A stretch of 64,000 nucleotides of DNA from Alphaproteobacteria bacterium (GCA_965222575.1 OZ244958.1:960001-1024000); one strand, 5' to 3'. Positions 1 to 22,839 are shown, counted from the stretch's first letter. The notes: generated by a model from the sequence alone, not told the origin. Translations and numbers: made by a program.

Positions 1-3000
1 TCCCTCCTCTTCAGGAGAGGTTACAGTAATAGGATCAACACCAGTCTCCATCGTCCACAATTGATAGTCTTCAAGCAATACATAATCAAAATCATTCGGC
101 ATCTGTGCCTGTCTTGTGCCTTCATCACTGACGGTATCTCTTCTCTTGTCTCTTCTTTTCCCTGTACCCTGTTGACCTTTAGCGGGAGCAGTTCTTAAGG
201 AAAAGTCGTATTTTTCTAGATTCCTTTTCAAATCAGTATTCCCTTCATGGTTCTCTCTCGGCAATCTATTGGCATCTAATACCTTCTTTTCAACCGCTTC
301 TACTGTATTATCATCATTAAAATCTACATTTACTATCCCATAAAAGAAGAGTTTATATTCAACGCATCCTAATTTATTGAATCTCCTTACATAACGAGGT
401 TCATTTGTGAAATGTATGCTAGACTTAGGGGGGATGAATTTTACAGGAACAGTTATCTCTTTTTGATGGATAACTTCTTGTAATTCAGAGGGGATTATAT
501 CCTTTCTATGTATATCACGCTTATTATATAGATAAGTTCTTGTCCATGTAATATAGTCTCCCTTCCTTGCTACCCCCTCTAGAACAACAATGTGTCCTGA
601 TTGGTCAGGTCTCAAAAGGGGCTTTCTACCCCAGCCTTCTTTGCTAGGAGAAGAATCAGAGACTACTTTATTCAAACTTTCATCAAAAGTAAAAATCCTT
701 TCATTATTTATCAAGACATAATCCTTATTATGAGGCATTTTTGCCTGATTATTAGGTATGTCAGTAAAACGTGACTGTCTTTTCGCTCTTTGTCCTTGTT
801 GACCCTGCGCTGGTGAGGAGGGGAAAAAAGAGGATAAGTTATCTTTCACATTCCCTCTAGGATTAAGATTGGCAGGCAACACTTCTCCAATAGTTGAACT
901 ATTATCAAAATCAAAATCTACACGACCATAGAACCTTAAATGATAAACAACATTACCACTTTCCTGAAGAATAATATTAGGATGTTGCAATGGGTCTTTG
1001 TATGGCTCAAGCATAGAAACTCCATTACGATCCAAATCTTGATTAGTAATAGTGTGATCAAGAATTTCATCACTTGCAACCGCCTGATAACCAATTTTAT
1101 CATTAGTTACAGCCTTAAAAGCAATTTTATGGGTAGTTACCGCATCATAATCAATTTTATCGGTAGTTACCGCATCATCAGCAAGTTTATCGGTAGTTAC
1201 AGACCCATCTGTTAAAGAAGCACCTACGCCATCCAATCCTTTAGCTCCAGTCTTTCCTGTTTCTCCAACATCACCTTTAGCACCATCCTTTCCTTCTGCC
1301 TTATAAACCCCCGCCCAATCTATTGCGACATTAGGTTTTCCGTAACCTACAAGGGTATACAAAATTCTTCCAGCTGCCTTATCAGGCACACTTGTACTCC
1401 AACTATCTGAAAGGTCGCTTACTGAATCATCAGCAAGAGTCTTTACTCTAACAAGAGGAGGTTGTGATAACACGCCATTAGCGTTTATTTGTTCTCTTGT
1501 TCTTGGTATAAGGAGCTCATAATTAGAGTCATCAATAGCATAATAAAATTGCATCTGACTTAGTCCATCAGTGCCTACTGTTCCAGCAAGACCTCTTAAT
1601 CCTGGTAGACCTACGCCATCTCTTCCTGCTGTTCCGTCTTTGCCTATTGTTCCATCATCACCCTTATCGCCTTTATCACCTACTTTATAAACTCCAGTCC
1701 AAAATACAGCAGTGCTAGGCTTACCACGCCCTATAAGCACCCATTGGGTTTTATTAGCGACAGGATTAGGTAATGTAGATTTCCAATCAGAGGTTGGTGG
1801 TAAGAGAGAACCATCAGAGCCTATTGTCTCTCTATTAGGTTTGCTTGGTGTAGGAGAGTCATCAAAAATACCATAGAAGCGAAATTGCGATAGACCATCT
1901 TGTCCATCATTACCATCCGTTCCATCTTGTCCATCTCTTCCATTAGTACCATCCGTTCCATCTTGTCCATCTCTTCCATTAGTACCATTCCGTCCTGCTG
2001 GTCCTGTAGGTCCTTTTGGTCCTTGTGGTCCTACATCGCCTTTAGCTACAGCACTACCAGGAAGACCTGTAGCTCCTTTCTCACCTTTCTGTCCTCTTGT
2101 AGGGAAAATACTTATCCATCTCACTTTAGACCTTGCCTTACCACTCCCAAACAAAAACCATAATACATAGTTGTTTGGTACAGTAAATCCTACAGTACTA
2201 ACACTTAATTCCCCAGCTAGTACTACTGCTGCCTCCTCTGGGGTTTCTTTCCAGCCTGTCGGAACATCCAAAACACCCTTAGCGTTAATGGGTTCTTGAA
2301 GGGGCTTTGTACAAGGTTGCCCTTCCTCGCAATACTTAAAGTAGACATAGTATCCATTACCATCACCCCAATCCCCTTTTTCTCCCTTTAATCCTGCCTG
2401 AAAAACACTGACCCAATTTACTGCTTTTCCTGCTGTGCCGTACCCCACAAGTGCCCATAGCTTAGTATTCGCTGCAGGACTAGGTATAGTATCACTCCAA
2501 TCCGTTACAGTTGGTAACACACCATCAGCACCAATTGTAGGTGTAGCCGCAGCAGTGTGGTCTGGCGTTGTACCATCAGCAACATTAGCATAGAGAACAT
2601 ATTGCCCTAAACCATCTGCTCCTGGTGTTCCTACTCCTGTTACTCCTCTTTCACCTTGCTTACCCGTCTCCCCCTTATCTCCCTTCTGAATTGGATAAGC
2701 TCCTGACCAATCTACCGCTTCTCCCGGTTTACCATGCCCTATAGCTACCCATAATGTCCTATTCGCTTCCGGGGTAGGGATAGTATCAATCCACTCCTTT
2801 ACTGCCCCTAATGCGCCATCATCGTCTATTGTAGGAGTCGCTATATTATCAGAATTCGGTGTCGTCCCGTCATTCTCAAGCTTGTAACGAATATACTGCC
2901 CTAAGCCATCTTGTCCTACACCATCCTTCCCATCAGTTCCTTTAGGACCCGGTATTAATGTTGCAGATTTTTTAATGTCCGATATTGTCTTTGCTACAGA

Positions 3001-3126
3001 GTCTACATTCCCACCCTCTGTTGTTACCTCTGTTGTTTTATCGCCATGCACAACTTGGTGAAATTTTTGTGCATCTGCCTCTGCAGTGGTTACAACTGTG
3101 TTAAGACGATTAGTTATACTACTCAT
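1..3126 (-). CDS. Collagen-like phage tail-fibre protein, paralogue 1 (3' end outside window)
   Basis: Missing from the ORF track because it runs off the edge. ATG at 3126 reads MSSITNRLNTVVTTAEADAQKFHQVVHG, like the N-terminus of 9834..12332. Segments translated near 1-180 and 720-840 are in the same frame and match 3309..9509. Confidence 0.9.
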   Translation of the reverse strand, partial: MSSITNRLNTVVTTAEADAQKFHQVVHGDKTTEVTTEGGNVDSVAKTISDIKKSATLIPGPKGTDGKDGVGQDGLGQYIRYKLENDGTTPNSDNIATPTIDDDGALGAVKEWIDTIPTPEANRTLWVAIGHGKPGEAVDWSGAYPIQKGDKGETGKQGERGVTGVGTPGADGLGQYVLYANVADGTTPDHTAAATPTIGADGVLPTVTDWSDTIPSPAANTKLWALVGYGTAGKAVNWVSVFQAGLKGEKGDWGDGNGYYVYFKYCEEGQPCTKPLQEPINAKGVLDVPTGWKETPEEAAVVLAGELSVSTVGFTVPNNYVLWFLFGSGKARSKVRWISIFPTRGQKGEKGATGLPGSAVAKGDVGPQGPKGPTGPAGRNGTNGRDGQDGTDGTNGRDGQDGTDGNDGQDGLSQFRFYGIFDDSPTPSKPNRETIGSDGSLLPPTSDWKSTLPNPVANKTQWVLIGRGKPSTAVFWTGVYKVGDKGDKGDDGTIGKDGTAGRDGVGLPGLRGLAGTVGTDGLSQMQFYYAIDDSNYELLIPRTREQINANGVLSQPPLVRVKTLADDSVSDLSDSWSTSVPDKAAGRILYTLVGYGKPNVAIDWAGVYKAEGKDGAKGDVGETGKTGAKGLDGVGASLTDGSVTTDKLADDAVTTDKIDYDAVTTHKIAFKAVTNDKIGYQAVASDEILDHTITNQDLDRNGVSMLEPYKDPLQHPNIILQESGNVVYHLRFYGRVDFDFDNSSTIGEVLPANLNPRGNVKDNLSSFFPSSPAQGQQGQRAKRQSRFTDIPNNQAKMPHNKDYVLINNERIFTFDESLNKVVSDSSPSKEGWGRKPLLRPDQSGHIVVLEGVARKGDYITWTRTYLYNKRDIHRKDIIPSELQEVIHQKEITVPVKFIPPKSSIHFTNEPRYVRRFNKLGCVEYKLFFYGIVNVDFNDDNTVEAVEKKVLDANRLPRENHEGNTDLKRNLEKYDFSLRTAPAKGQQGTGKRRDKRRDTVSDEGTRQAQMPNDFDYVLLEDYQLWTMETGVDPITVTSPEEEG

Positions 3127-3290
3127 GTCGTTTCCTTTAATGTTTGTTGTTCAAATGTGTGAAATGCCCTAAAGGCATTCCCTAAATCCTCATCTGTTAA
3201 AAGTTTTCCCTTTTCTTCACTTGAAGGTTGTGTATTGCCCCTCCGAGAGCCTCCACCCTACACAAAAAAGAGTAGGGGCTATGAAGGGAA
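3127..3290 (-). pseudogene. Eroded copy of the minor tail gene at 12329..12772
   Basis: DNA matches 9510-9830 (with deletions) and parts of 12335-12650, e.g. the NAF.AFHTF.QQTLKE-coding stretch and aagagtaggggct. Confidence 0.7.
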
Positions 3291-3308
3291 ATGAGAAAAT
3301 CTCCAAAA

Positions 3309-6300
3309 TTAATTTTCTAAAGCCACAATCCGCTTTTTCAATGTCTCTATCTGCTCTTGCTGCGTTTTTGTCTGCTCTTGCTGTGTTTTTATCTGATCTT
3401 GCTGTTGCTGTATAGCCTTTAAAAGAACAACTGATAGCCTGCTGTAGTCCACACTCTTATACCCCTCTGAATACTCAGAAGTGCCTACTAGGTCAGGACA
3501 AACCTTTTCTACTTCCTGCGCTATCAAACCATGTTCTACCTCACTAGACCCCCTTTGTCCTCCTTGTGGCGCTGGGTCTGGTATAATGTCATTCCCATCC
3601 TTATCTTTTTCAAATACAGGGTCAGGGATTTCCTTACGAGTAAATGTTATAGGACGAAGCTTTTTAACACAATCAAGACCATCCTGTACATCAGCTATAT
3701 TCTCCTTTAAGCGTTCATCACTGTTTTGCGTTAGTGTGCCTGTTAGAGTTAAGTTACCAGTAGTAAGGTCTCCTGTTAAGACCCTTCCTATGTTAATGTA
3801 ATCATCGGTTCCAGAACTTGGGGTTACTGCACCATCACCTATGCCTATGTTCCTATCCCCTGTGGTGTTGCTCAGTAAGGCACCAGTACCAATTGCCGTG
3901 TTATAATCCCCTGTGGTGTTGTTGAATAAGGCATTGATACCACTTGCGGTGTTAGAATGACCTGTGGTGTTGTTTCCTAGAGCAGCAACCCCAATTGCGA
4001 TGTTATTAGCCCCTGTGGTGTTGTAAAATAAGGCAAAAGTACCACTTGCGGTGTTAGAATACCCTGTGGTGTTGTTTTCTAAGGCAAAAGTACCACTTGC
4101 GGTGTTAGAACTCCCTGTGGTGTTGGCTGCTAAGGCACTAGTACCACTTGCGGTGTTACTATCCCCTGTGGTGTTGGAATATAAGGCACCACGACCACTT
4201 GCGGTGTTAGAATACCCTGTGGTGTTGGCTGCTAAGGCACGAGTACCACTTGCGGTGTTAGAATACCCTGTGGTGTTGGCTGCTAAGGCACTAGTACCAC
4301 TTGCGGTGTTAGAATTCCCTGTGGTGTTGGCTGCTAAGGCACGAGTACCACTTGCGGTGTTATAATACCCTGTGGTGTTGGCTGCTAAGGCACTAGTACC
4401 ACTTGCGGTGTTAGAACTCCCTGTGGTGTTGGCTGCTAAGGCACGAGTACCACTTGCGGTGTTAGAACTCCCTGTGGTGTTGCTTTGTAAGGCACCAGAA
4501 CCACTTGCGGTGTTATAATTCCCTGTGGTGTTGGCTTGTCCGTTCTCTGCCGAAAGAAAAGTATTATTGTAATCTGTTTTTCCATATGCATATTCTTCAA
4601 AGGTATCTGCCCTAGCAACTGTATATACATCAGTCCCTAGTTTTGCCTTTGTAACCGCTCCATCTGCTATCTTGCTAGTCCTTACAGCACTATCCCCTAA
4701 AGCCCCTACAGCAGGGTCACCTCTTTCTCCTTTCTGTCCTGCCTTGTAAACACCAGACCAAGTTATTGTCTCTCCCGCTTTACCACGCCCTAAAAGCACC
4801 CATAAGCTCTCTCCTACAGAAGGACGACCAGGAATATACTTAGTCCACCCGCTTACAGTTGCTAATACGCCATTAGAGCCTATTGACACTGCAGATGGCT
4901 CAGTAGGGGTTTGACCATCAGTTACAAACTTATACCTGAAGTATTGCCCCATACCATGTTGCCCATCTTCCCCAGCCGCACCAGTAAGCCTTACTTGTCC
5001 TCCGCCCCCGCCCCCGCCAAGTTGAACAATAGCATTAGGGTCAAGTTTGGAATATGTTATTGCCCCATCTGCTATTGTATGCTCAGTTGCTTTTCCTTCA
5101 TAATCTTCCCGTTCAAGATATGGATAAGTTCGTGTCCATGTAACATAATCCCCCATTTTTGCTATACCTTCCAAAACCATAATTATAGGAAGGGGAATGA
5201 ACTTATTAGAGGAGGCGGGTGCAATATCAACTGTCCTAAATGGATCTCTACTCCATCCTTCCTCCTGAGGAGAAGATACCATTCTTATGTCATGAGGAAA
5301 ATCCTGAGGAAACCTAGTATCAACAGTCCATAAATTAGAATTCTCTAATAGAACATAATCTTTATTATTAGGCATTTGTGCCTGGATAGGTACTAGTGAA
5401 ATCCTTCTCTTCCTTCTTTTTCCCTGTTGTGCTTGTGCTGGAATAGTGACATCCTTCCATAAATTCAATGCATCCTTTATATCCTCATTATTATTATGAT
5501 TAGTAGTTTTCCTAGGGGAGTAATTAGGCTCTAAAACTTTTTTTTGTGCTTCTGTTATAGTACCTGTAGTATCAAAATCAAAATTTACAATTCCGTAGAA
5601 AATTAACTTATGGTATTCGTTACCAGTTTTATCAAAAGTGATATAAGATGGAACTTCATTATCATAATAGTTGGTTATTCCATTTTCCCAAGGTTCAGCA
5701 TACTTCAAAGGGTTACCAATGTTTTCGTTAATAAAATAATCTAAAAACTCCCCTTTTTTTATGTTTTCCTGGTATAAGAAACCATCATTATAAGAATAAG
5801 TCTTTGTCCATACAATATAATCTCCTTTGTTTGCTACACCCTCTAGGACAACAATGTTTCCTGGTTGGTCATTTCTTAAAAGGGGCTTTCTACCCCAGCC
5901 CTCTTTGGTAGGAGCATCAAAATGTTCTAATTGACCTGTAGTCTCATGAACAGTTGCTATCTTTTCATTATTTATCAAGACATAATCCGCATTATTAGGT
6001 ATTCTTGCCTGATTATCAGGTATGTCAGTGAAGGAGGCTCTAGGCTGTCGACCAAATTCTCCTTGTCTTTTTCCTCTTTGTCCCTGTTGACTTTGTGCTG
6101 GGGAAGACTTAGTACTAGTTAATTCATTTTTCACATCCCCTCTAGGACTATAATGAGCAATCAACACTCTTTTTTCATTACTCTCAATTACACCATCATC
6201 ATCAAAATCAGCATTTATCCTCCCATAAAACCTTAAATGATAAACAACATTACCTCCTTCCTGAAAAGTAGTATTAAGGTTAGCTACTGAGTCTTTATAT

Positions 6301-9300
6301 GGCTCAAGCATAGAAACTTCATTACGATTCAAATCTGTATTAGTAATAGTTCCATCAGTAATTTTGGCACTTGTTATTGCTCCATTAACAATCTTAGCAC
6401 CTGTAACCGCACCATCAGCAAGTTTATCAGTCGTTATAGAACCATCTGTTATAGTAGCAGGGTCTCCCTTTGCTCCATCTTGCCCATCTCTTCCTGGTGC
6501 CCCTGGCGCTCCTTTTGCTCCTGGAGTTCCTGGATTGCCTTGTTGTCCCGTTGGTCCTTGTTGTCCAGCTTGTCCCGGTCTTCCTGGTGTCCCTGGAGTT
6601 CCTGGATTGCCTTGTGGTCCCGTTGGTCCTTGTTGTCCATCTTGTCCCGGGCTTCCTGGTGTTCCTGGATTGCCTTGTTGTCCCGTTGGTCCTTGTTGTC
6701 CAGCTTGTCCAGCTGCCCCTGTAGCCCCTGATGCTCCTATTGCTCCTGTAGCGCCTGTATCGCCTTTTTCTCCTACTTTATAAACCCCAGCCCAAGTTAC
6801 TGTACCAGAAGGTCTACCACGACCCACAAGTATCCATAACCTTTTATTTGCTCCAGAAACAGAAGCCTTAGCTTTCCAACCAGTTGGAGGTGATAAGGTA
6901 CCAGTAGGACTTATTGCATCTTTTGTAGTAGGTACAGGTGGCGTTGTCCCATTATCAACATTAGCATAATAACGAAATTGTCCTAGACCATCTTGTCCAG
7001 CTGCCCCTGTAGCCCCTGATGCTCCTATTGCTCCTGTATCGCCTTTCTCTCCTTTTTCTCCTACTTTATAAACCCCAGCCCAAGTTACTGTACCAGAAGG
7101 TCTACCACGACCCACAAGTATCCATAACCTTTTATTTGCTCCAGAAACAGAAGCCTTAGCTTTCCAACCAGTTGGAGGTGATAAGGTACCAGTAGGACTT
7201 ATTGCATCTTTTGTAGTAGGTACAGGTGGCGTTGTCCCATTATCAACATTAGCATAATAACGAAATTGTCCTAGACCATCCTGTCCCGCTACCCCTTGAG
7301 CCCCTGTATTACCCTGTATTCCTTGTTGTCCATCTGCTCCATCATCACCGTCTCTACCAGCTGCCCCTTTAGCCCCTGGATTACCCTGTACTCCAGTAGT
7401 GCCAGTAGCACCAGTTTCTCCTTTCTCTCCCTTAGTGCCATCACTACCGTCCTGTCCTGGATCGCCTTTAGCTCCTGGATTACCTTGTTGTCCATCTGCT
7501 CCATCATCACCGTCTCTACCAGCTGCCCCTTTAGCCCCTGGATTACCCTGTACTCCAGTAGTGCCAGTAGCACCAGTTTCTCCTTTCTCTCCCTTAGTGC
7601 CATCACTACCGTCCTGTCCTGGATCGCCTTTAGCTCCTGGATTACCTTGTTGTCCCGGCGCTCCATCAGTGCCATCTTGTCCTGTTAGTCCTGTATTACC
7701 CCGTATGCCCTGTATGCCCTGTGCTCCAGTAGTGCCAGTAGCACCAGTTTCTCCTTTCTCTCCCTTAGTGCCATCACTACCGTCCTGTCCTGGATCGCCT
7801 TTAGCTCCTGGATCACCTTGTTGTCCCGGCGCTCCATCAGTGCCATCTTGTCCTGTTAGTCCTGTATTACCCCGTATGCCCTGTATGCCCTGTGCTCCAG
7901 TAGTGCCAGTAGCACCAGTTTCTCCTTTCTCTCCCTTAGTGCCATCACTACCGTCCTGTCCTGGATCGCCTTTAGCTCCTGGATTACCTTGTTGTCCCGG
8001 CGCTCCATCAGTGCCATCTTGTCCTGTTAGTCCTGTATTACCCCGTATGCCCTGTATGCCCTGTGCTCCAGTAGTGCCAGTAGCACCAGTTTCTCCTTTC
8101 TCTCCCTTAGTGCCATCACTACCGTCTCTACCAGCTGCCCCTTTAGCCCCTGGATTACCCTGTATTCCTTGTTGTCCAACTGGACCTTGTTGTCCATCTG
8201 CTCCATCATTACCATCACCACCGTCCTGTCCTGGATCGCCTTTAGCACCTGCCGCCCCATCGTTGCCATCTTGCCCAGATAGTCCTCTTTCTCCCTGAGC
8301 TCCCTGTATACCTTGCGCTCCATCCACTCCGTCTTGTCCATCATTGCCATCTGCTCCACTAAGTCTAGTAATAGCATTAGAATCCAGCTTGTTATATGTT
8401 ATTGTCCCATTAGCAATTTGTCTCGCTGTTATAGACCCGTTAGAGAGATGCCCCCCTGATAGGGTAAAGGGGGTAACTTTAACCCCTGTTACAGCCTTAT
8501 CAGCAATTTTATCAGTAGTTACAGACCCATCTGTTAAAGCTCCTGCCTCCCCCTTATCTCCTTTATCGCCTTTAGCTCCTGGATTACCTTGTTGTCCCGG
8601 CGCTCCAGTCTCTCCTTTAGGTCCTACTGCTCCCTCTAGTCCTTGTAGCCCTTTATCTCCTCCTGCTTTGTAAACCCCAGTCCAAGTCACAGTACCGCCA
8701 ATATACGCCGCACCAGACAAAACCCATAACACCTTGCCAGTTTTTGGGGATGGAATTGTCTTACTCCATCCAGTAGGTAAAACTGGCGGGTGATCCATGC
8801 TGCTAAGGTCACCACTGTTATCTCTATCTATAAAAAGGTTCCTATACCACCATAAGGTATACTTATGATCATTAGGCACAGTAGGCGTTGACCCTTCATC
8901 AAATAGTCCATAATAAAAAATTGCAGAGCCTCCTGCCTCCCCCTTCGTTCTATAGACACCAGCCCAAGATACTGGACTAGACGGCTTGCCATCCCCTACA
9001 AGTACCCATAACGTTTCGCCTCTTTCAGAAGTAAGTACAGTAGAACTCCAATCAGTCGGAGCAGATAACGTACCATCAGAGTCTATTGTAGGTTTTTCAC
9101 TAGGGACAGGTGGCTTTGTTCCATCATCAAAATTCGCATAAAAACGATACTGTCCTAGACCATCCTGTCCCGCTGCTCCATCATTACCATCACCACCGTC
9201 CTGTCCTGGAGCGCCTTTATCCCCTGGATTACCCTGTATTCCTTGTAGTCCTCTATCTCCTTTATCTCCTTTTACTCCTGTTAGGTAAACCCCAGACCAA

Positions 9301-9509
9301 GACACTGCATGAGACGGCTTACCATACCCTACAAGTACCCATAATGTCTTATCTGTTTCAGAAGGAGGTACAGTAACACCCCAATCCCAATCAGTCGGAG
9401 GTATTAACACGCCATCAGCGCCTATCATAGGCGTTGCCGTAGGCACAGGTGGTGTTCTCCCATCATCAAAATTCGCATAAAAACGATACTGTTTATTAAT
9501 TGTACTCAT
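3309..9509 (-). CDS. Giant collagen-like tail-fibre/adhesin with Gly-X-Y tracts, 17-aa NTASG..NTTG repeats and C-terminal peptidase S74 chaperone (paralogue 2)
   Basis: Long G-X-Y runs, DGAVTxxKI repeats, S74 signature SDERLKENI...GLIAQEV...VDYSRL plus coiled coil. Start moved to ATG 9509 (AGGAG at 9516-9520); the track's 44-aa extension is pseudogene remnant. Confidence 0.88.
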   Translation of the reverse strand: MSTINKQYRFYANFDDGRTPPVPTATPMIGADGVLIPPTDWDWGVTVPPSETDKTLWVLVGYGKPSHAVSWSGVYLTGVKGDKGDRGLQGIQGNPGDKGAPGQDGGDGNDGAAGQDGLGQYRFYANFDDGTKPPVPSEKPTIDSDGTLSAPTDWSSTVLTSERGETLWVLVGDGKPSSPVSWAGVYRTKGEAGGSAIFYYGLFDEGSTPTVPNDHKYTLWWYRNLFIDRDNSGDLSSMDHPPVLPTGWSKTIPSPKTGKVLWVLSGAAYIGGTVTWTGVYKAGGDKGLQGLEGAVGPKGETGAPGQQGNPGAKGDKGDKGEAGALTDGSVTTDKIADKAVTGVKVTPFTLSGGHLSNGSITARQIANGTITYNKLDSNAITRLSGADGNDGQDGVDGAQGIQGAQGERGLSGQDGNDGAAGAKGDPGQDGGDGNDGADGQQGPVGQQGIQGNPGAKGAAGRDGSDGTKGEKGETGATGTTGAQGIQGIRGNTGLTGQDGTDGAPGQQGNPGAKGDPGQDGSDGTKGEKGETGATGTTGAQGIQGIRGNTGLTGQDGTDGAPGQQGDPGAKGDPGQDGSDGTKGEKGETGATGTTGAQGIQGIRGNTGLTGQDGTDGAPGQQGNPGAKGDPGQDGSDGTKGEKGETGATGTTGVQGNPGAKGAAGRDGDDGADGQQGNPGAKGDPGQDGSDGTKGEKGETGATGTTGVQGNPGAKGAAGRDGDDGADGQQGIQGNTGAQGVAGQDGLGQFRYYANVDNGTTPPVPTTKDAISPTGTLSPPTGWKAKASVSGANKRLWILVGRGRPSGTVTWAGVYKVGEKGEKGDTGAIGASGATGAAGQDGLGQFRYYANVDNGTTPPVPTTKDAISPTGTLSPPTGWKAKASVSGANKRLWILVGRGRPSGTVTWAGVYKVGEKGDTGATGAIGASGATGAAGQAGQQGPTGQQGNPGTPGSPGQDGQQGPTGPQGNPGTPGTPGRPGQAGQQGPTGQQGNPGTPGAKGAPGAPGRDGQDGAKGDPATITDGSITTDKLADGAVTGAKIVNGAITSAKITDGTITNTDLNRNEVSMLEPYKDSVANLNTTFQEGGNVVYHLRFYGRINADFDDDGVIESNEKRVLIAHYSPRGDVKNELTSTKSSPAQSQQGQRGKRQGEFGRQPRASFTDIPDNQARIPNNADYVLINNEKIATVHETTGQLEHFDAPTKEGWGRKPLLRNDQPGNIVVLEGVANKGDYIVWTKTYSYNDGFLYQENIKKGEFLDYFINENIGNPLKYAEPWENGITNYYDNEVPSYITFDKTGNEYHKLIFYGIVNFDFDTTGTITEAQKKVLEPNYSPRKTTNHNNNEDIKDALNLWKDVTIPAQAQQGKRRKRRISLVPIQAQMPNNKDYVLLENSNLWTVDTRFPQDFPHDIRMVSSPQEEGWSRDPFRTVDIAPASSNKFIPLPIIMVLEGIAKMGDYVTWTRTYPYLEREDYEGKATEHTIADGAITYSKLDPNAIVQLGGGGGGGQVRLTGAAGEDGQHGMGQYFRYKFVTDGQTPTEPSAVSIGSNGVLATVSGWTKYIPGRPSVGESLWVLLGRGKAGETITWSGVYKAGQKGERGDPAVGALGDSAVRTSKIADGAVTKAKLGTDVYTVARADTFEEYAYGKTDYNNTFLSAENGQANTTGNYNTASGSGALQSNTTGSSNTASGTRALAANTTGSSNTASGTSALAANTTGYYNTASGTRALAANTTGNSNTASGTSALAANTTGYSNTASGTRALAANTTGYSNTASGRGALYSNTTGDSNTASGTSALAANTTGSSNTASGTFALENNTTGYSNTASGTFALFYNTTGANNIAIGVAALGNNTTGHSNTASGINALFNNTTGDYNTAIGTGALLSNTTGDRNIGIGDGAVTPSSGTDDYINIGRVLTGDLTTGNLTLTGTLTQNSDERLKENIADVQDGLDCVKKLRPITFTRKEIPDPVFEKDKDGNDIIPDPAPQGGQRGSSEVEHGLIAQEVEKVCPDLVGTSEYSEGYKSVDYSRLSVVLLKAIQQQQDQIKTQQEQTKTQQEQIETLKKRIVALEN
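3850..4535 (-). repeat. 14 copies of a 51-bp (17-aa) coding repeat NTASGxxALxxNTTGxx
   Basis: cctgtggtg recurs every 51 bp from ~3859 to ~4522. Only 6 copies in paralogue 3 (~10335-10610). Confidence 0.95.
6700..7290 (-). repeat. Near-perfect ~288-bp tandem duplication within fibre 2
   Basis: cgaaattgtcctagacca at 6973 and 7261; the block GLGQFRYYANVDNG...VYKVGEKG appears twice. Confidence 0.92.
7320..8170 (-). repeat. Near-identical 162-171-bp collagen-coding tandem repeats
   Basis: gcaccagtttctcc at 7408, 7570, 7741, 7912 and 8083. Confidence 0.92.
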
Positions 9510-9810
9510 AATCATCTCCTTTAATGTTTGTTGTTCAAATGTGTGAAATGCCCTAAAGGCATTCCCTAAATCCTCAAAATTCTCATCTGTTAAAAGTTTT
9601 CCCTTTTCTTTCTCCAGAATAGGCCAGTGTAAGACCTTCAACGCTCCAAATAACGCCCATCCCAGCTTTCTGGTGCCTATAATGCTGTAGTTCTAACCCT
9701 CAAAAGGGTGATAGAGAAAGATTCTGCCCCGACCCCTTGATATCACTGCTTGTTGTGTATTGCCCCTCCGAGAGCCTCCACTCCACACAAAAAAGAGTAG
9801 GGGCTATGAA
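9510..9810 (-). pseudogene. Eroded copy of the minor tail gene at 12329..12772
   Basis: Encodes KVLHWPILE...NAFRAFHTFEQQTLKE versus EVLHWPLLG...NAFGGFHTFINQTLKE in the intact gene; the upstream part is broken. Confidence 0.75.
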
Positions 9811-9833
9811 GGGAAATGAGAAAATCTCCAAAA

Positions 9834-12332
9834 TTATGCTTCTAAAGCCACAATGCGTTTTTGTAATGCTTCTATGGTTTCCTGTTGCTCCTGTACAGCC
9901 TTTAAGAGAACAACTGATAGCCTGCTGTAGTCCACACTCTTATACCCCTCTGAATACTCAGAAGTGCCTACTAGGTCAGGACAAACCTTTTCTACTTCCT
10001 GTGCTATCAAACCATGTTCTACCTCACTAGACCCCCTTTGTCCTCCTTGTGGCGCTGGGTCTGGTATAATGTCATTCCCATCCTTATCTTTCGGAAATAC
10101 AGGGTCAGGGATTTCCTTGCGAGTGTATTTAACAGGACGAAGCTTTTTAACACAATCAAGACCATCCTGTACATCAGCTATATTCTCCTTTAAGCGTTCA
10201 TCACTGTATTGCGTTAGTATGCCTGTTAGAGTTAAGTTACCAGTACTAAGGTTTCCTGTTAAGACCCTTCCTATGTTAAGGTAACCATTGCTTGTAGCGC
10301 TTGGGGTTCTAACATTACCTATGCCTATGTTACTATCCCCTGTGGTGTTGGTTAGTAAGGCACCAGTACCACTTGCGGTGTTATAATCCCCTGTGGTGTT
10401 CAAAACTAAGGCACTATCACCACTTGCGGTGTTATTATGCCCTGTGGTGTTGTTGTATAAGGCACCATAACCACTTGCGGTGTTAGAATGCCCTGTGGTG
10501 TTGTTGTATAAGGCACCATAACCACTTGCGGTGTTAGAATGCCCTGTGGTGTTGTTGTATAAGGCCCTAGTACCACTTGCGGTGTTAGAATACCCTGTGG
10601 TGTTGGCTTGTCCGTTTTCTGCTGAAAGAAAAGTATTATTGTAATCTACTTTTCCCTTTACATATTCTTCATATGCATCTGCCCGCGCAACTGTAACGAC
10701 ATCCACCCCTAGTTTTGGCTTTGTAACCGCTCCGTCCGCTATCTTACTAGTCCTTACAGCACTATCCCCTAAAGCCCCTACAGCAGGGTCGCCTCTTTCT
10801 CCTTTTTGTCCTCTTGTAGGGAAGATACTTACCCACCTGACTTTGTCGCTTACCTTACCAGCTCCAAGCAAAAACCATAATACATAATTGTCTGGTACAA
10901 CATAACCATCAACAACTTGTCCTAATGATGTAGCTAAAACCCCTGCCGCTTCTTCCGGGGTTTTTTCCCAATCTGAATAAATTGTCAAAACACCTTTAGC
11001 GTTAATCCTTCCTTCATCGGGTTTTCTACAAGGACTTCCTTCCTCGCAATACTTAAAGTAGACATAATATCCAATACCATCACCCTTATCCCCTTTTTCT
11101 CCCTTTAATCTTGCTTGAAAAACACTGACCCAAGTTACTGCGTTTCCTGCTATACCATATCCTACAAGCCCCCATAAACTTTTATTTGCTGCAGGATTAG
11201 GTATTGTTCCTCTCCAATCCGTTACATATGGTAATATACCATCAGCACCAATTGTAGGTGTAGCCGCAACAGTGTGGTCTGGCGTTGTACCATCATCAAC
11301 ATTAGCATAGAGAATATATTGCCCTAATCCACTATTGCCTATATTACCTTGTTTACCTTTGTCTCCTTTTCTAATTGGGTAAAATCCCGACCATACTACT
11401 ATTTCACCTATCCTTCCTCGCCCTATAAGCATCCATAAAACTTTATTCGCTGACATAGACAGAACGGATTTACTCCAACCTGTTATGGCCGGTAATTCCC
11501 CGTTCGCAGTGATAGTATAATCATCTGTAATTTCGGCTGGCGTATTCCCCTTATCTTCAAGCCTATAAAGAATATACTGATTTAACCCACTTTTCCCGTT
11601 CGTTCCATCAAGACCATTCGTGCCATCGTCTCCTGTCTCGCCTTTTTCTCCCTTTAATCCTGCCTGAAAAACACTGACCCAAGTTACTGCGTTTCCTGCT
11701 GTACCATATCCTACAAGCCCCCATAGCTTAGTATCTGCTACAGGACTAGGTATTGTTACAGTCCAATCCGTTATAACTGGTAACACGCCATCAGCACCAA
11801 TTGTAGGTGTATCCGCAGCAGTGTGGTCTGGCGTTGTACCATCAGAAACATTAGCATAGAGAATATATTGCCCTAAACCATCTAGTCCTGGTGTTCCTAC
11901 TCCTGTTAGTCCTCTTTCACCTTGCTTACCCGTCTCCCCCTTCTGAATTGGATAAGCTCCTGACCAGACTACCGCTTCTGATGCTCTACCATGCCCTATA
12001 GCTACCCATAATGTCCTATTCGCTGCCGGGGCAAGGAGTGTATCACTCCACCCTGTTACAGTCCCTAATACGCCATCTGAGCCTATTGGAGGAGTTGGTA
12101 TGGAAGAACGAGTTGGCGTTGTGCCGTCATTCTCAAGCTTATACCGAATATATTGCCCTAGTCCATCCTGACCAGCCGGAATTTCTGACAGTCTCTTTGC
12201 TACAGAGTCTACATTCCCGCCATCTGTTGTCACCACTTTTGTTTTATCGCCATGCACAACATCGTGAAATATATCCGCATCTGTCTCCGCTTTGGATACA
12301 ACTGTATTAAGACGATTAGTTATATTACTCAT
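9834..12332 (-). CDS. Collagen-like tail-fibre protein with S74 chaperone (paralogue 3)
   Basis: N-terminal HDVVHGD...TDGGNVDSVAK tail-anchor-like segment, G-X-Y segments, 6 NTTG repeats; S74 domain almost identical to paralogue 2. Confidence 0.9.
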   Translation of the reverse strand: MSNITNRLNTVVSKAETDADIFHDVVHGDKTKVVTTDGGNVDSVAKRLSEIPAGQDGLGQYIRYKLENDGTTPTRSSIPTPPIGSDGVLGTVTGWSDTLLAPAANRTLWVAIGHGRASEAVVWSGAYPIQKGETGKQGERGLTGVGTPGLDGLGQYILYANVSDGTTPDHTAADTPTIGADGVLPVITDWTVTIPSPVADTKLWGLVGYGTAGNAVTWVSVFQAGLKGEKGETGDDGTNGLDGTNGKSGLNQYILYRLEDKGNTPAEITDDYTITANGELPAITGWSKSVLSMSANKVLWMLIGRGRIGEIVVWSGFYPIRKGDKGKQGNIGNSGLGQYILYANVDDGTTPDHTVAATPTIGADGILPYVTDWRGTIPNPAANKSLWGLVGYGIAGNAVTWVSVFQARLKGEKGDKGDGIGYYVYFKYCEEGSPCRKPDEGRINAKGVLTIYSDWEKTPEEAAGVLATSLGQVVDGYVVPDNYVLWFLLGAGKVSDKVRWVSIFPTRGQKGERGDPAVGALGDSAVRTSKIADGAVTKPKLGVDVVTVARADAYEEYVKGKVDYNNTFLSAENGQANTTGYSNTASGTRALYNNTTGHSNTASGYGALYNNTTGHSNTASGYGALYNNTTGHNNTASGDSALVLNTTGDYNTASGTGALLTNTTGDSNIGIGNVRTPSATSNGYLNIGRVLTGNLSTGNLTLTGILTQYSDERLKENIADVQDGLDCVKKLRPVKYTRKEIPDPVFPKDKDGNDIIPDPAPQGGQRGSSEVEHGLIAQEVEKVCPDLVGTSEYSEGYKSVDYSRLSVVLLKAVQEQQETIEALQKRIVALEA

Positions 12333-12772
12333 AACCTCTCCTTTAATGTTTGATTTATAAATGTGTGAAATCCCCCAAAGGCATTTAAGAGCGGAATTGC
12401 ATCTTCTCCCAACAAAGGCCAGTGTAAAACCTCCAAAGAGGCAGACACATCAAAAGCATTGCCTCGCCTCTTTGCTTTTGGCTGCTCTGTAAACCGAGCC
12501 CCGCATGGCTGTAAACCCAACCCGCCTAGAAGGGTGATAGTAAAAGACTCTGCTCCCATTTGTATTATTGTCTTATACCACTCCTTGAAGGCTGTATATT
12601 GTGCCTCTGATAATCTCCATTGCGCAGACACAAGAGTAGGGGCTTTTGTAAAGACTTGCCTGTGCGAAGACAGACCAGTATCCCTCTCTGTCCGTCTGAA
12701 AACTTGCCCTGCTGTAATCCTATATCCCTTGCGGGTAGGGAGGGGTAGGGTTGATGGCCATTCCTTTGTCAT
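12329..12772 (-). CDS. Phage minor tail protein (lambda gpM-like)
   Basis: WPSTLPLP..GY start; ATGA overlap with the upstream gene at 12769-12772; lies between tape-measure remnant and fibres. Confidence 0.65.
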   Translation of the reverse strand: MTKEWPSTLPLPTRKGYRITAGQVFRRTERDTGLSSHRQVFTKAPTLVSAQWRLSEAQYTAFKEWYKTIIQMGAESFTITLLGGLGLQPCGARFTEQPKAKRRGNAFDVSASLEVLHWPLLGEDAIPLLNAFGGFHTFINQTLKERL

Positions 12773-13098
12773 GATTTTACCTCCAAAACACCATTTACAG
12801 ACCACAGACTAGTAGCTACAGGTATGGAAGATATGGCCTGAATAAAGCGAACCTCCCCAATGTCTTGCAGCATAAACCAGTCCATCCCAGAATGAACTGA
12901 CCACCACTCTTCAAAGACCAGAAACTGATCTTCTGTCATTAACCAGTGTGCTGTAATCTTTTCAGGAGGACTTGCAAAGCGTAAGCGGTGCTGTCTTAGT
13001 CCAGCTTCACCTTGCGTGCGTAAAACCTCCTCTTGGTACTCTGTTCCGTAACCTTTCCTCTGCGGAAGGGGCAACGTCTTTGGCCAAATCTCACTCAT
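12769..13098 (-). CDS. Phage minor tail protein (lambda gpM-like), paralogue of 12329..12772
   Basis: WPKTLPLPQRKGY...LRTQGEAG..F..FEEWW pattern. Confidence 0.65.
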   Translation of the reverse strand: MSEIWPKTLPLPQRKGYGTEYQEEVLRTQGEAGLRQHRLRFASPPEKITAHWLMTEDQFLVFEEWWSVHSGMDWFMLQDIGEVRFIQAISSIPVATSLWSVNGVLEVKS

Positions 13099-13366
13099 TG
13101 CTTACTAAAGCCTCCTTATTAAAATTTTCTGTGTATTCTGCAATATTTCCCATGACATCTCCTTGGGTATCTCCATTTTCCTTTGAAATCTCCTGTACAT
13201 CAACTCCTCCGCCCGGTGTAAAGACTGCCTTGCGAGCAAGGATGGGTATCTCTTCTCCTACAACCCCTCCAGAAACAAACATATCCTGTGTTTTCGTCTT
13301 TGATAATACATACTTGCGCCGCAACTCCTCTGCTAGCCGTATGGATAATGTCTTCTTACTTGTCAT
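13091..13366 (-). pseudogene. Internally deleted tape-measure protein (N- and C-terminal stubs only)
   Basis: MTSKKTLSIRLA resembles tape-measure N-termini; GGVVGEEIPILARK.AVFTPG resembles their C-terminal motif; only 91 aa, at the syntenic position. Confidence 0.55.
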
Positions 13367-13592
13367 ACTTCTTATGAATGTCTTGTATTGCTAAAAATAT
13401 TCCCTCTGATACCCGCCACTAGCAACTCCGCCAGTACCTCTTGGTTATAACCAAGGCTAGCCGCAAGGTGTCTCAAGAGGAAATCGTTTGGTAATCTATA
13501 ATGGACAAGCGACAGGTGATATCCCACGCCTGCCAGCCTTCCTCTGTCGCTTCATACCATTCTCTAGGGAAGGGGCTTGTTTTAACTCCTTC

Positions 13593-13627
13593 AGAGAGGC
13601 TTCCCTTCGTGGTAAGCCTCTTTTTTT
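13593..13627 (+). terminator. Intrinsic terminator-like hairpin upstream of the NYN fragment
   Basis: gaggctt-cccttcgtggt-aagcctc followed by T7. Confidence 0.6.
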
Positions 13628-13643
13628 AATAGAGAGAGGATAT

Positions 13644-13811
13644 ATGAAAACTATTGTCTATATTGATGCACTGAACTTGTACTATGGATGCCTGAAAGGA
13701 ACCCCTTACAAATGGCTTGATTTACAAGCTTTGTTCTCAGTACTAGCAGAAAATTACAAAAGATTAAGAAAACGCCTAAATAAGCCTTCCTGTTCTTTTG
13801 TAGAGAGATAA
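13644..13811 (+). pseudogene. Truncated NYN/LabA-DUF88 (PIN-like) nuclease
   Basis: MKTIVYIDALNLYYGCLKGTPYKWLDL is a typical NYN N-terminus; good RBS (gagagga); stops after 55 aa. Confidence 0.7.
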
Positions 13812-13825
13812 GAAGCTTCTAACTT

Positions 13826-14029
13826 CTATTCCACATTTTTGAGGTAATTAACTTTTGTATTCCATGGCTTTACACCCGGCGGACGAGAGGAATATGGAAA
13901 GTCAATTCCAGTATCCTGTATACCACCTACGCCATGATACTTGCCAATCTTAATAGAGTCTCCTTGATTTCCAAGTTGCTTTTTAATGCTTTCTAACTCT
14001 TTTTGAAAAGGATTTTTAGTGTCTTTCAT
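13826..14029 (-). CDS. Small hypothetical protein downstream of the SDH protease
   Basis: Starts 3 nt after the SDH stop, with ggagg RBS. Confidence 0.5.
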   Translation of the reverse strand: MKDTKNPFQKELESIKKQLGNQGDSIKIGKYHGVGGIQDTGIDFPYSSRPPGVKPWNTKVNYLKNVE

Positions 14030-14032
14030 TTC

Positions 14033-14920
14033 TTACCTCCTGAGAAGTGGCAGTAAACCATATTTTGTATGAATTGAGTACACAATACCAATCTTTTGAC
14101 AATAATCTGTAAAAAGACCATAGTATTGTTGAATAGTATCATTTAACTCTTTATCCTTACCAAAATCAATTATTTTAAGCTTAATTTCATCTGATGTAAG
14201 AGTCTTCATTGGTATCCCACGGCTGTGGGATTTCCATATTTTGGGATCACCAAGTTTTTTTGCAATTTCTTTTGCTCTGTTTTCTTTGTATTCTTTGGTA
14301 ACCTCCTTCTTACCAGTTTCATGGGTTTCCCAATCCTTAAATTTGTATGCGCATAACCACTTTCCTATAAGCTCTATGGATCTTTCTTTTTCTCGTTTTA
14401 ACTGAAAGAGCTCGGCAGGATCAAATTTATTAAGTAGGATTTGCATTTCAGCAGTTGAAAGGGGTTCTTTTTTACTTTTATCTATGAGGTCTTGATACTC
14501 CTCCAAATAACCAAGACCTGGTAAAAGACGATTTCCCTTTTGGGTTTGGGGGTCAATCGGGCTAAGAATCGAGTAATAATCCATGTATATCTCATCTCCA
14601 GATAGGGCTAAAACAGTTCCAGCTGAAAATGCATGACTTGGTATTATAAAGTCAACATACTGAAAATGATGTCGAAAAACATCGCTGATTCGCTCTACAA
14701 CGTCAATAGAGCCCCCATCAGTTTCAAGAATAACAATTAATTTGTCTTTACACTTTTTCTGTGATTTGAGATATTCAATTACCATTTTAGCTTTAGCGTC
14801 AAGTCCTGACGTAATAGGGAAACAAAGAATAAAAACTTCCCCTTTAAGTTTCTCCTCAAGTTTTTCTGCGAAGTCCCTAAGAACATTACTTATAATGTCG
14901 TCAGATTCTATGGGTATCAT
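14033..14920 (-). CDS. SDH-family ClpP-fold serine protease (DUF114-like)
   Basis: LETDGGS, AFSAGT (Ser), PIDPQ (Asp), WKSH (His). Confidence 0.85.
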   Translation of the reverse strand: MIPIESDDIISNVLRDFAEKLEEKLKGEVFILCFPITSGLDAKAKMVIEYLKSQKKCKDKLIVILETDGGSIDVVERISDVFRHHFQYVDFIIPSHAFSAGTVLALSGDEIYMDYYSILSPIDPQTQKGNRLLPGLGYLEEYQDLIDKSKKEPLSTAEMQILLNKFDPAELFQLKREKERSIELIGKWLCAYKFKDWETHETGKKEVTKEYKENRAKEIAKKLGDPKIWKSHSRGIPMKTLTSDEIKLKIIDFGKDKELNDTIQQYYGLFTDYCQKIGIVYSIHTKYGLLPLLRR

Positions 14921-15036
14921 TCTTTGTAAATATAGCCTTAGTGCATCACTTTAGCAGTGTACTTAAAGTATACTGGAAACTTAGAGCCACTTCAATCATA
15001 ATCCATAATCTGAAAAAAACCCAAGCGTAGGCGTAG

Positions 15037-15982
15037 CTAATAACTACCGATTGTGTTCTTCAGGGTTGCTGTGAGCATATGTCCTACTGTGGTATCCTTT
15101 GCCCCTTGAAAGTCATAGGAAACCTCTATCCCACTAGGGCTGTCTATACGACTCTTCGGCTTCTGTAAATACACCTCATGTGCCGTAATCTCCAGCAAGT
15201 TATCTGCATCTATTGTATAGGCAAGTGTCAATGCCACCCTTGTGCCACCACTGGCTACAGCGGTCTCATGGGCATACCGCACAGTAATTGAACCCGTCAA
15301 AGACGCCCTTCCTAAATCCACTTCAATCTTTCCATCACTCCGTATTGTCTCTATACGCTCTAAATTGTTGCTATAGGTTAACGACCCATCGGTTACATTC
15401 GCAAGCAAATCACTACCTTTCTTAATGCTCCCTTGAAGCTGAGAAAATCTTTGATAGGCATGAGGAGCCGTTGGATTGCTATGCTTAGTAGAGCCACCAG
15501 TCGTTGCCCCTTGACCTATAACGTTGATAGTTGCTTGTGCCTCCCCTGAACTTTGGAAATTAAACGCTATGTTATTCGCCCGTACCCCTGAGAACAGAAA
15601 AAACTTGCTCACATCTGGATAGCCTACCTCCAGCGTCATACTCGGCACTGTCGTCTTCCCAGAAACAAACGTGTGCGTTTTCTTTGTGGTGTTCGAAGTT
15701 GTTGTTGGGTCTCCAAACAAAGCCTTTAGCCAATATCCGATATTGTTCAAGTCCACTGGGACCACAATATCTCTATCCACCCTAGTCACATCCTGAAATA
15801 TTATAGGGTCTCTGTCTTGTCCCAAAACTTGAGACTCTATCAATCCCTGTTCAGAGTTCAGACTGGACGAGACAAAGGGGACGATTTGATACGAGTCCGC
15901 ACTTGACGGCGCTGTCCCGTAAGTATCTGGTGCCTCCCACGCTATTAAAAGTTTTCTATATCCATTCATATGCTCTTGCCAT
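15037..15982 (-). CDS. Phage tail tube protein, apparently frameshifted just after the ancestral start
   Basis: PSMTLEVGYPDV, YSNNLERIETIRSDGKI, LTATLKN. A MARAY start at 15982 with RBS is out of frame with the body; the open frame begins at 15969. Confidence 0.8.
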
Positions 15983-16019
15983 TAACCTTCTTAGTAGTTA
16001 TTAAACTTTGTAAACGCCA

Positions 16020-16255
16020 TTTCAGATGACTGCTTCCCCTGCTTTTATCCCTCCAAGCCTATCCGTCCCAGACAACGCTTGTTGTACATCGGAAGCTCCA
16101 CCCTGTGCTGGGTAATATTGTGTGGAGGCGAGAGCAACACTTGTGGTGCTCCTTGATTGCCGTCGGCTTCAGGCGTAATCTGTTTTATCGCTTTTAGGAC
16201 GGCTACATGAGAAACATTTGCGTCTAGGGGCGTACTCTCGGAGTGATATCTCCAT
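16020..16255 (-). pseudogene. Fusion scar: terminase-small-subunit-like 5' end joined to a tail-terminator fragment
   Basis: MEISLREYA../SHVAVLKAIKQITPEADG continues directly into NQGAPQVLLSP...QHRVEL, then (shifted) DRLGGIKA; junction near 16160. Confidence 0.55.
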
Positions 16256-16374
16256 TTCCTAACGCGTAAGGCCTCCCCATTCTAATCAAAAATTAATACC
16301 ATTTTGTACCAAATGTACACAAGAAAAATGTACTGTTTTGTACCATTTTGTACCAAGTCCTTTAATAGCAAGGG

Positions 16375-16767
16375 TTAGGGACATTGTTTTTCATTTAATT
16401 TTATAGCAATTTTGTGTAATCCGCTTTTCCATTTTCGTACAGCAGTTGTGCGTCCACATCCTATCTTCCAGCAAATGACTTTCCAAGGCTTTCTGCACGC
16501 ACGCATCCAAATAATATCACCTTCTTCTTTTTCTATTCCTTCAAACCTAAGCCACTTACAGGTTTCCCAGCATTGAGTGATCTGTTTGGGGGTAGGACGT
16601 AAGACCATAGGAACAGGTTCTAATTGTTGTAGAATTTCCTCTGGAGAACAAATAAAATCTGGCCATGAATTTTTATATTTTTTTGGCAAAACGGAAGGCA
16701 ATGTACTCAGAACCCATACTGCTTGATAAAAGCGCTCAACAACAGTTTCCTTGGTCCACTTTCCCAT
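16375..16767 (-). CDS. Phage DUF6362-like protein (putative late-gene regulator, C-terminal HTH)
   Basis: WTKETVVERFYQA..LSTLP...WP; IIWMRA..KPWKVICWKIGCGRTTA; ATG 16767 with GGAG RBS. Confidence 0.7.
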   Translation of the reverse strand: MGKWTKETVVERFYQAVWVLSTLPSVLPKKYKNSWPDFICSPEEILQQLEPVPMVLRPTPKQITQCWETCKWLRFEGIEKEEGDIIWMRACRKPWKVICWKIGCGRTTAVRKWKSGLHKIAIKLNEKQCP

Positions 16768-16820
16768 AGCACACTCCTGCATGAGAGGTTTTGTTTTGAA
16801 AAAAAGGGAATTTCTAGTTG

Positions 16821-17090
16821 TCAATAGCTTTTTCCCCCCGGCGCATGATGCTTTGGACAGCGCCTGTTAGCATATCTACATTTCAGTCCTGTTTGTGTGA
16901 TAAATCGCTCGAAACACTCAGGACAATAGGTCTTCCAACAGAGAAGATACCGTTGTTCTCCTCGCTTCCCTTGATACTCTTCAAAACCAACATACTCGTA
17001 TCGTTGCCCTTGTTTCATGAAAACGCTTCTGAGAGGCGGGGGTGTGTGAAAGGCAATTTTCTTAACAAATACAGGGCTACTTAAGGACAT
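16821..17090 (-). CDS. Small Cys/His-rich phage hypothetical protein
   Basis: 89-aa ORF with CPEC and CPKH, co-directional with neighbours. Confidence 0.5.
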   Translation of the reverse strand: MSLSSPVFVKKIAFHTPPPLRSVFMKQGQRYEYVGFEEYQGKRGEQRYLLCWKTYCPECFERFITQTGLKCRYANRRCPKHHAPGGKSY

Positions 17091-17713: not shown

Positions 17714-17890
17714 GAAAAAATTCTCACCCGAAAAAAATGTTGTGTCAACCCCCTTGAATTTCTCAAAATTCCCTATTTTTGCCCTTTTTTGAATATCTTT
17801 TAACATCACTGTAGTTCCTTTTCCCAAAAAGTTGGTCACTTTTTGCCTCCATTGACCTTCAGAGGTGAGAGCGTTTTGCACAAAAATGAC

Positions 17891-22806: not shown

Positions 22807-22839
22807 AGGTGTTGACAACCCAGAAAGCATTGCTTAAGG

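Follow-up and report, generated by a model that had tools for sequence, protein, structure and literature searches.

Defective prophages are common, and tail fibres that combine a collagen-like stalk with a C-terminal S74 domain are already known. Siphoviruses of the RcDormio type ('Synechococcus phage Sc-Yong805-1', MT836000.1, 35 IMG/VR contigs) share a gene order that runs from a RuvC-like resolvase and DUF6362 through the head genes, gp12, gp13, the tail tube, the tail chaperones G and GT, the tape measure and an M-like minor tail protein to an adaptor-headed fibre, DUF1833, a J-like protein and the lysis genes. In annotated RcDormio itself, the tube homologue follows the genes for the small and large terminase subunits (TerS and TerL), portal, capsid-protease and connectors, and precedes those for the chaperones and tape measure. 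We analysed a window of 64,000 nucleotides (genome positions 960001–1024000) from an Alphaproteobacteria bacterium (GCA_965222575.1, OZ244958.1), positions 1–16255 of which are the tail arm of a prophage. Its tube protein is 33–60% identical to homologues in RcDormio-group Rhodobacter phages, two 'cyanophage' records, an unannotated 14-kb phage contig, three genomes of the same class and 35 IMG/VR contigs. The prophage has the integrase and tRNA attachment (att) repeats, the PF18906 tube, the tail tip (M-like, DUF1833/L-like and J-like proteins) and the lysis cassette of the RcDormio type. Unlike phages of that type, it has no TerL, portal, capsid or connector genes, and only relics of the G/GT chaperones and tape measure. 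The distance from fibre start to DUF1833, which is 1.5–2.7 kb in 12/12 relatives, is 13.8 kb here, and the slot holds three fibres.

The account that we favour, and hold with moderate confidence, is that of a recently disabled lambda-like prophage whose fibre slot was expanded by cassette multiplication and module exchange. One deletion took ~11 kb (small and large terminase, portal, protease-capsid and connectors) between DUF6362 and the tube, and a second took the tail chaperones and nearly the whole tape measure after the tube, at a site that a foreign ClpP-like protease cassette now occupies. Having undergone these two deletions, the element can therefore build neither heads nor tails. The three fibres fill the slot of the relatives' one short fibre and arose via repeated duplication, or recombinational capture, of a unit comprising an M-like gene and a fibre. 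Their openness would stem mainly from past selection in working phages, from repeats that preserve the reading frame and from the recency of the deletions. The anatomy, the two deletions, the cassette structure and the lack of matching head genes are established by the sequence comparisons, and both the order of these events and the recency of the disabling are what we infer.

The element is a temperate lambda-like siphovirus prophage lying in a tRNA-Thr gene, and the window holds its late (tail) arm. A perfect direct repeat (30/30 bp) bounds it, with the right copy at window positions 33686–33715 inside the tRNA gene and the left copy at genome positions 948397–948426, adjoining an integrase gene with Phage_integrase and Arm-DNA-bind_3 domains. 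These boundaries give a size of 45,319 bp (~45.3 kb), and both the prophage and the third fibre reach leftwards past the start of the window. The source genome is a single contig of 1,215,846 bp (97.6% complete), apparently of an intracellular bacterium. Every large open reading frame (ORF) in the first 17.9 kb of the window is on the minus strand (see the table), and the genes are transcribed in the order RuvC-like resolvase, 89-aa ORF, DUF6362, tube, ClpP/SDH-like protease, 67-aa and 91-aa ORFs, two phrog_384 ORFs and three collagen/S74 fibres. Left of the window, fibre 3 is followed by DUF1833 (phrog_396, minor tail), a J-like protein (599 aa, shorter than the 776 aa of the relative genome G014), Fic-MerR, DUF6127, a holin-like ORF and lysozyme, and beyond these by two ankyrin/Fic cargo genes and the integrase. 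A search with the G014 query found no K-like tail gene.

An earlier note on this DNA had claimed that no terminase, portal or capsid gene lies between DUF6362 and the tube. This proved correct, and none was found within the att boundaries either. The gap between the two genes is only 405 bp, an interval that in the relative G010 holds ~11 kb of TerS, TerL, portal, protease-capsid and connector genes, within the order RuvC-like, DUF6362, head block, gp12, gp13, tube and G. The gap retains a 24-aa relic with 58% identity to the gp13-like connector. Among the viral contigs in which both genes of a pair could be located, gp13 lay upstream of the tube in 31/31 (within 96 nt in 28) and G lay after it in 31/31 (within 14 nt in 27 and at 242–755 nt in four). 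The RuvC-like resolvase at the head of the arm was degenerate, as had also been claimed: the motif ILALDLG of the G010 homologue reads ILALNLG here, with Asn in place of the first catalytic Asp, and the C-terminus is gone.

Matching head genes were also absent from the rest of the genome, where neither an HK97-type nor a lambda-E-type capsid was found, nor a lambda-type portal, and where no GpA terminase scored above cut-off. When the head proteins of four relatives were searched against the genome with tblastn, the only matches were host protease-like or fell in Fic/ankyrin regions. The search that the earlier note had proposed for head genes elsewhere in the genome thus returned Mu-type remnants only, and no head or tape-measure module adjoins the window, a find that the note would have counted against its idea. 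Its search for a sister prophage was answered in part: a second remnant of the same family exists at 1146.2–1149.1 kb, but it too is without matching head genes. Large unnamed ORFs at 37.5–50 kb of the window were considered as hidden head genes and rejected, as from 37.5 kb onward the window reads as host chromosome. Genes there encode NAD synthase, a tRNA synthetase of the Glu/Gln type, and LolA-like, MMPL and outer-membrane proteins, although three large ORFs within 37558–43279 had no solid family match.

It is extremely unlikely that the missing modules reflect assembly collapse or a misjoin and that the prophage is truly complete. The region is rich in repeats, and sequencing-run contigs break at several points with none spanning the whole stretch. 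However, the genome is one 1.216-Mb contig of 97.6% completeness, relics of the deleted genes lie at both junctions, and no head genes of matching type occur anywhere in the assembly. Two runs of one study, X1 and X2, hold 85–93% of the sampled words of the stretch, and run contigs cover 15992–17948 and 12566–13598 with few differences. The region of the tape-measure relic is covered in both runs; depth in a third run, X3, was 0–6.

Downstream of the first deletion, the tube gene is intact and is the sole PF18906 copy in the genome. The earlier note had read its start as frameshifted, which we did not find: the 310-aa ORF aligns from residues 2–6 through to the end with full-length homologues, and the sequence upstream is the connector relic. 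We rejected the possibility that this tube and the neighbouring ClpP-like protease are a mis-named capsid and prohead protease, since the homologue is annotated as tube in RcDormio, follows gp13 and precedes G in all 31 contigs, and has no such protease beside it in any of 35 relatives. A single-protein search of IMG/VR gave no relative of the ClpP/SDH-like protease, and phage records gave only distant matches without shared context. Contigs of two runs skip the protease cassette, joining 13437 to 15025 and 13627 to 15039, and depth over the cassette is about one half to one third of that over its flanks. The cassette is therefore polymorphic, as an insertion. Extra DNA was also seen at the tube–chaperone junction in 4/31 viral relatives and in MT836000.1.

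The tube and M-like genes are 1.9–2.2 kb apart here, compared with 3.3–5.2 kb in 20/20 relatives. In place of a tape measure there is a 91-aa stub, as the earlier note had described; it contains a C-terminal fragment that matches residues 767–813 of the relatives' 871- and 896-aa tape measures (E 6e-5 to 2e-4 against a 3.7-kb subject). Apart from relics, the only tape measure in the genome belongs to a Mu-like cluster. The relatives G014 and G038 keep the whole module, with the tape measure followed by the M-like gene and a single fibre (541 or 264 aa) whose N-terminus resembles those of fibres 1 and 3; DUF1833 and J-like genes follow in G014. The 40 relative genomes compared share only the class of the host, none belonging to the same family.

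All three fibre genes are open, at the lengths that had been claimed (about 2.5, 6.2 and more than 3.1 kb). Fibre 1 has 2499 nt; fibre 2 has 6201 nt within an open frame of 6333 nt that continues to 9641 through an M-like relic; and fibre 3 is 4554 nt when complete, its final 1428 nt lying left of the window and ending at genome position 958573. Together they total 13.25 kb, ~1.1% of the genome. Each is a mosaic of modules. Beads of 70–88 aa (GLGQY...W.GVY; 12 by pattern, 11 aligned) lie between collagen GXY runs, two domains of ~230 aa occur in fibres 2 and 3, and all three fibres have a run of 17-aa NTTG..NTASG repeats and a C-terminal S74. Collagen (PF01391) scored 252.9 bits in fibre 2 and 42 bits in fibre 3, whereas the 17.8 bits of fibre 1 were below the 27.2-bit cut-off. 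Peptidase_S74 scored 48.6 bits in fibre 1 and 45.6 bits in fibre 2, above the Pfam cut-off, and the genome has five S74 matches including fibre 3. The motif SDERLKENI, which we take to serve trimer-dependent S74 self-cleavage at its Ser...Lys site, is present in all three fibres 123–137 aa from the end. An N-terminal adaptor of ~55 aa is found on fibres 1 and 3 and also heads the single fibre of the relatives, while fibre 2 keeps its first residues only, consistent with the earlier observation that fibre 2 lacks the segment shared by the other two.

A structural model of one 71-aa bead reached a predicted local distance difference test (pLDDT) score of 91.6, with internal copies supplied as the alignment. 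It had no matches at E ≤ 0.001 in either PDB or BFVD; the top BFVD rows were phage tail, collagen and J proteins, with TM scores of 0.6–0.69. The predicted fold fits, and does not prove, an FN3/Ig-like fibre decoration.

The organisation of the slot agrees with the claim that the fibres have been amplified. Each extra fibre is preceded by an M-like relic, and the same junction, in which the M-like end is followed by a ribosome-binding sequence and the start codon (...AAAGGAG..ATG), occurs on all three fibres. The multiplied unit is therefore the M-like gene together with its fibre. No S74 domain, FN3-like bead or protease near the tube was detected by tblastn in any of the 35 viral contigs, and over its C-terminal 346 aa the fibre of the Mu-like cluster is 62% identical to fibre 1. 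Judged from these comparisons, the fibre bodies therefore seem to derive from a host-specific module pool, namely that of the fibres of phages of this host.

We investigated whether the fibres show constraint. Their paralogous segments are 80–89% identical in DNA (11–20% divergence), and all are open. The ratio of non-synonymous to synonymous substitution rates (dN/dS) between paralogues was 0.28–0.63 in the adaptor, bead, ~230-aa-domain and S74 segments, and ~1–1.5 in the NTTG receptor repeats, where the alignment is ambiguous. In simulations of unconstrained substitution, 1% change left fibre 1 open in 32% of trials and fibre 2 in 8%; at 2%, fibre 2 was open in 0.4%, and at 5%, fibre 1 was open in 0.2%. 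Because ORFs of this length die under simulated neutral change, the divergence between paralogues accrued under constraint. Tandem-repeat periods were divisible by three in 8/8 rows, so that slippage is frame-neutral.

One explanation for this pattern, which we regard as unlikely although the sequence comparisons give it some substance, is that the fibres are kept for the bacterium: as adhesins, either displayed or set free by the holin and lysozyme that the element encodes, or as a pool of receptor-binding modules that recombines and supplies other prophages of the genome. In a fuller and equally doubtful version, the cassettes would have multiplied after virion loss beyond the capsid capacity of the family. 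They would since have stayed open and been exchanged among strains, with purifying selection acting on the stalk and diversifying selection on the tip, and would act as lysis-released or surface adhesins or as a store for Mu-like elements. The slot, 5–9-fold larger than in all 12 relatives, is consistent with this, as is the packaging-size argument that the element measures 45.3 kb even without ~14 kb of essential genes. Low dN/dS in the adaptor, bead and S74 segments with values of ~1–1.5 in the receptor repeats is as found in diversifying binding proteins, and ORFs of such length would not outlast 1–2% of neutral change. The ribosome-binding junction is conserved on all three fibres, and the redundant M-like copies have decayed while their fibres have not. 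This 1.2-Mb genome has five S74 fibre genes, including that of the Mu-like cluster. A mosaic allele in another assembly is also intact: its 1131 aa begin with 130 aa identical to fibre 1, the identity to fibre 3 is 65% over residues 1–807, and the tip is different. Stop codons in sister strains, which the earlier note had named as grounds for abandoning its idea, were thus not seen in the one allele from another assembly.

Other findings do not favour host retention. No signal peptide was evident at the fibre N-termini when read by eye, fibre 2 is without the docking adaptor, and the divergence of the paralogues can predate the decay. Other modules are equally intact, with the integrase, repressor, replication, tube, DUF1833, J-like, holin and lysozyme genes all open. 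The fibre of the Mu-like cluster has only 75–83% DNA identity, so no recent exchange is visible. A solo fibre paralogue at genome positions 761.7–763.9 kb (beads, NTTG and S74) is broken, being split over three frames; its neighbours are a peptide deformylase gene, ankyrin and housekeeping genes, with no other phage gene nearby. Constraint may instead have acted in functional phages, the cassettes then being captured by recombination, and the restriction-modification and antitoxin cargo could stabilise the element by itself. Amplification of the fibres is thus supported, but the inference of the earlier note that selection keeps them independently of virions is unproven for the present headless state, as the divergence may be older than the decay.

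Recent disabling, as we favour it, has to be weighed against several observations of the opposite tendency. Contigs of X2 differ from the window by ~0.4–1.9% in neighbouring stretches, compared with the simulated 1% change that left fibres 1 and 2 open in only 32% and 8% of trials; if the headless state is older than the X2 split, some fibre constraint is implied. Restoring the lost genes would bring the element to ~58–60 kb, against 37.6–42 kb in complete relatives. Because this restored size exceeds that of the relatives, much of the fibre expansion probably took place after packaging had stopped mattering, and the 11–20% divergence between paralogues would in that case have accumulated under constraint in the host. 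Some of the decay is also not very recent, including that of the RuvC-like gene, of the ORF-poor stretch of 2.75 kb and of the M-like relics.

Size bears as well on whether the element might be a helper-dependent, satellite-like phage that excises, replicates and lyses, taking heads and tails from an intact relative in the population and contributing its own tube, tail tip and fibres. We consider this very improbable. In its favour, the att repeats and the genes for integrase, repressor, helicase-primase and lysis are intact, the X1 and X2 contigs represent several coexisting haplotypes of the locus, and the 405-bp spacer after DUF6362 could conceivably hold a packaging site. However, no helper of matching type is present in the genome, no packaging site or small terminase was identified, and 45.3 kb exceeds the 37.6–42 kb of complete relatives.

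Differences between the runs and the window carry no weight here, since the 40 listed of ~680 are few and selected. They comprised 7 synonymous, 12 non-synonymous and 21 intergenic changes; 7 of those listed lie together close to the end of a contig in fibre 1 and are probably of paralogous origin. The listed length changes in fibre 1 were all net in-frame, and many of them probably come from paralogous fibres.

Table. Features of the prophage within the 64,000-nt window (window coordinates).
Feature	Position	Strand	Remarks
Fibre 3, first 1042 of 1517 aa	1..3126	-	adaptor, FN3/Ig-like beads, collagen, two ~230-aa domains, 17-aa NTTG repeats, S74
M-like relic before fibre 3	3132..3279	-	found by tblastn of the 158-aa M-like protein, as two overlapping pieces that differ in frame
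Fibre 2, ~2066 aa	3309..9509	-	from ATG at 9509, preceded by AAAGGAG; collagen, S74
M-like relic before fibre 2	9510..9804	-	two pieces, frameshifted
Fibre 1, 832 aa	9834..12332	-	adaptor, four FN3/Ig-like beads, NTTG repeats, S74 chaperone; start overlaps M-like stop
M-like minor tail protein, 158 aa	12329..12805	-	phrog_384; homologues directly follow the tape measure in other phages
Second, partial M-like paralogue, 109 aa	12769..13098	-	phrog_384
91-aa ORF with tape-measure relic	13091..13366	-	C-terminal tape-measure relic at 13154-13279
Possible GT (tail-chaperone frameshift product) relic, weak	13402..13547	-	tentative; E 0.001 in a small search space
Inserted cassette: 67-aa ORF and ClpP/SDH-like serine protease	13826..14920	-	protease at 14033-14920; foreign to the phage family, protease in 0/35 viral relatives
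Tail tube protein, 310 aa, intact	15037..15969	-	PF18906, E 9.3e-43, 147 bits, full profile covered
Deletion scar replacing head and connector genes	15970..16374		gp13-like connector relic at 16093-16164
DUF6362 protein and 89-aa ORF	16375..17090	-	DUF6362 at 16375-16824; its G010 counterpart lies ahead of the head module
RuvC-like resolvase, degenerate	17327..17881	-	weak partial PHROG match only
ORF-poor stretch, 2.75 kb, probably decayed	17882..20632		many of the listed strain differences fall here
Immunity and early genes, all open	21352..30138		M78 peptidase, helix-turn-helix repressor (-); AAA_24, helicase, PD-(D/E)XK nuclease, primase-helicase (+)
Right-end cargo	30239..33352	-	type II restriction enzyme and Dam-like methylase (DUF6996/6997 with methylase); SocA/Panacea protein and unnamed neighbour ORF
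tRNA-Thr(CGT) with right att copy	33671..33745	-

Two of the tabulated features gave little in database searches: a literature search for DUF6362 returned no papers, and the ORF-poor stretch had no match in phage records. The left arm (L001:10190-16297) carries cargo comprising a 474-aa Fic-ankyrin protein, a 730-aa protein with ~22 ankyrin repeats and, in the late operon, a SoFic-like Fic-MerR protein. Just outside the left att copy (L001:1763-8256) are three large ORFs of 547, 580 and 934 aa, the first of which encodes an ankyrin-repeat protein. At least five paralogues of the PF13505 outer-membrane beta-barrel family were seen in the window (20633-21355; 47656-54915), mostly near or just under the cut-off, with one of them inside the prophage beside the repressor. 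In the host part of the window, a C-rich tandem repeat at 52332-52954 (117/234 nt, 2.6–3.5 copies, 70–72% matches) sits in a 2-kb stretch with a GC content of 0.58 and a GC skew of -0.61, with no long ORF and no Rfam match.

Other phage debris is scattered through the genome. The second remnant of the same family lies beside tRNA-Pro and consists of gp12, gp13, G, GT and a frameshifted N-terminal tape-measure stub without a tube; at the tube position there is a single bead of the fibre type (1147747-1147974), and host genes flank the remnant. We considered whether this remnant and the locus in the window are halves of one prophage, and rejected this: the tube belongs between gp13 and G, and the window keeps its own gp13 relic, indicating two separately decayed copies. 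The Mu-like cluster at ~273–302 kb, on the minus strand, has a portal (300889-302187), a gpT capsid (296172-297005), a 537-aa tape measure (285658-287268), a gpD hub and a 498-aa collagen/S74 fibre (282290-283783), with no large terminase beside the portal. A further gpT capsid is located at 144 kb. The sole large terminase of the genome (428 aa), at 118.3–121.1 kb, comes after a second Mu-type portal and a DUF2730 ORF, which is not the native Mu order, and this locus is flanked by an ankyrin gene and a DNA methylase/helicase pair.

What is unusual about this locus is the combination of a 1.2-Mb genome, 13.25 kb in three intact tandem fibres and an element unable to build a virion, with a fibre slot 5–9 times that of every relative examined. 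If host selection does act on the fibres, this would be a case of an intracellular bacterium re-using phage receptor-binding proteins by a route other than the known ones of tailocins and injection systems. If it does not, the locus would be a snapshot of prophage decay by block deletion, not point mutation, together with multiplication and recombination of fibre cassettes.

Among known systems, gene transfer agents have head and packaging genes of their own and are conserved across a host lineage. This element has no head genes, and those of Mu type lie dispersed in the genome, which has just one large terminase. Known phage satellites are much smaller and lack tail genes; compared with satellites of the phage-inducible chromosomal island (PICI) and P4-like types, the present element has 45.3 kb with tube, tail-tip and fibre genes, and no matching helper in the genome. 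F-type tailocins are flexible, lambda-like headless tails, and the element resembles them in its headless set of tail genes and its lysis cassette. Unlike them, it has no tape measure or chaperones, so no tube assembly would be expected, and it has kept the integrase, att sites, helicase and primase. S74 domains act as intramolecular chaperones in fibres such as endosialidase and those of the T5 L-shaped-fibre type, which the three fibres resemble in that S74 was above cut-off in each; compared with these, no enzymatic head domain was detected here and cleavage is only predicted. Collagen-like tail-fibre proteins are described in prophages, for example in E. coli O157:H7 (PMC3368898), and the likeness lies in GXY stalks within prophage fibre genes. 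Here, by comparison, three giant copies stand in tandem in a headless prophage of a 1.2-Mb genome, and combine such stalks with FN3-like beads and S74 chaperones.

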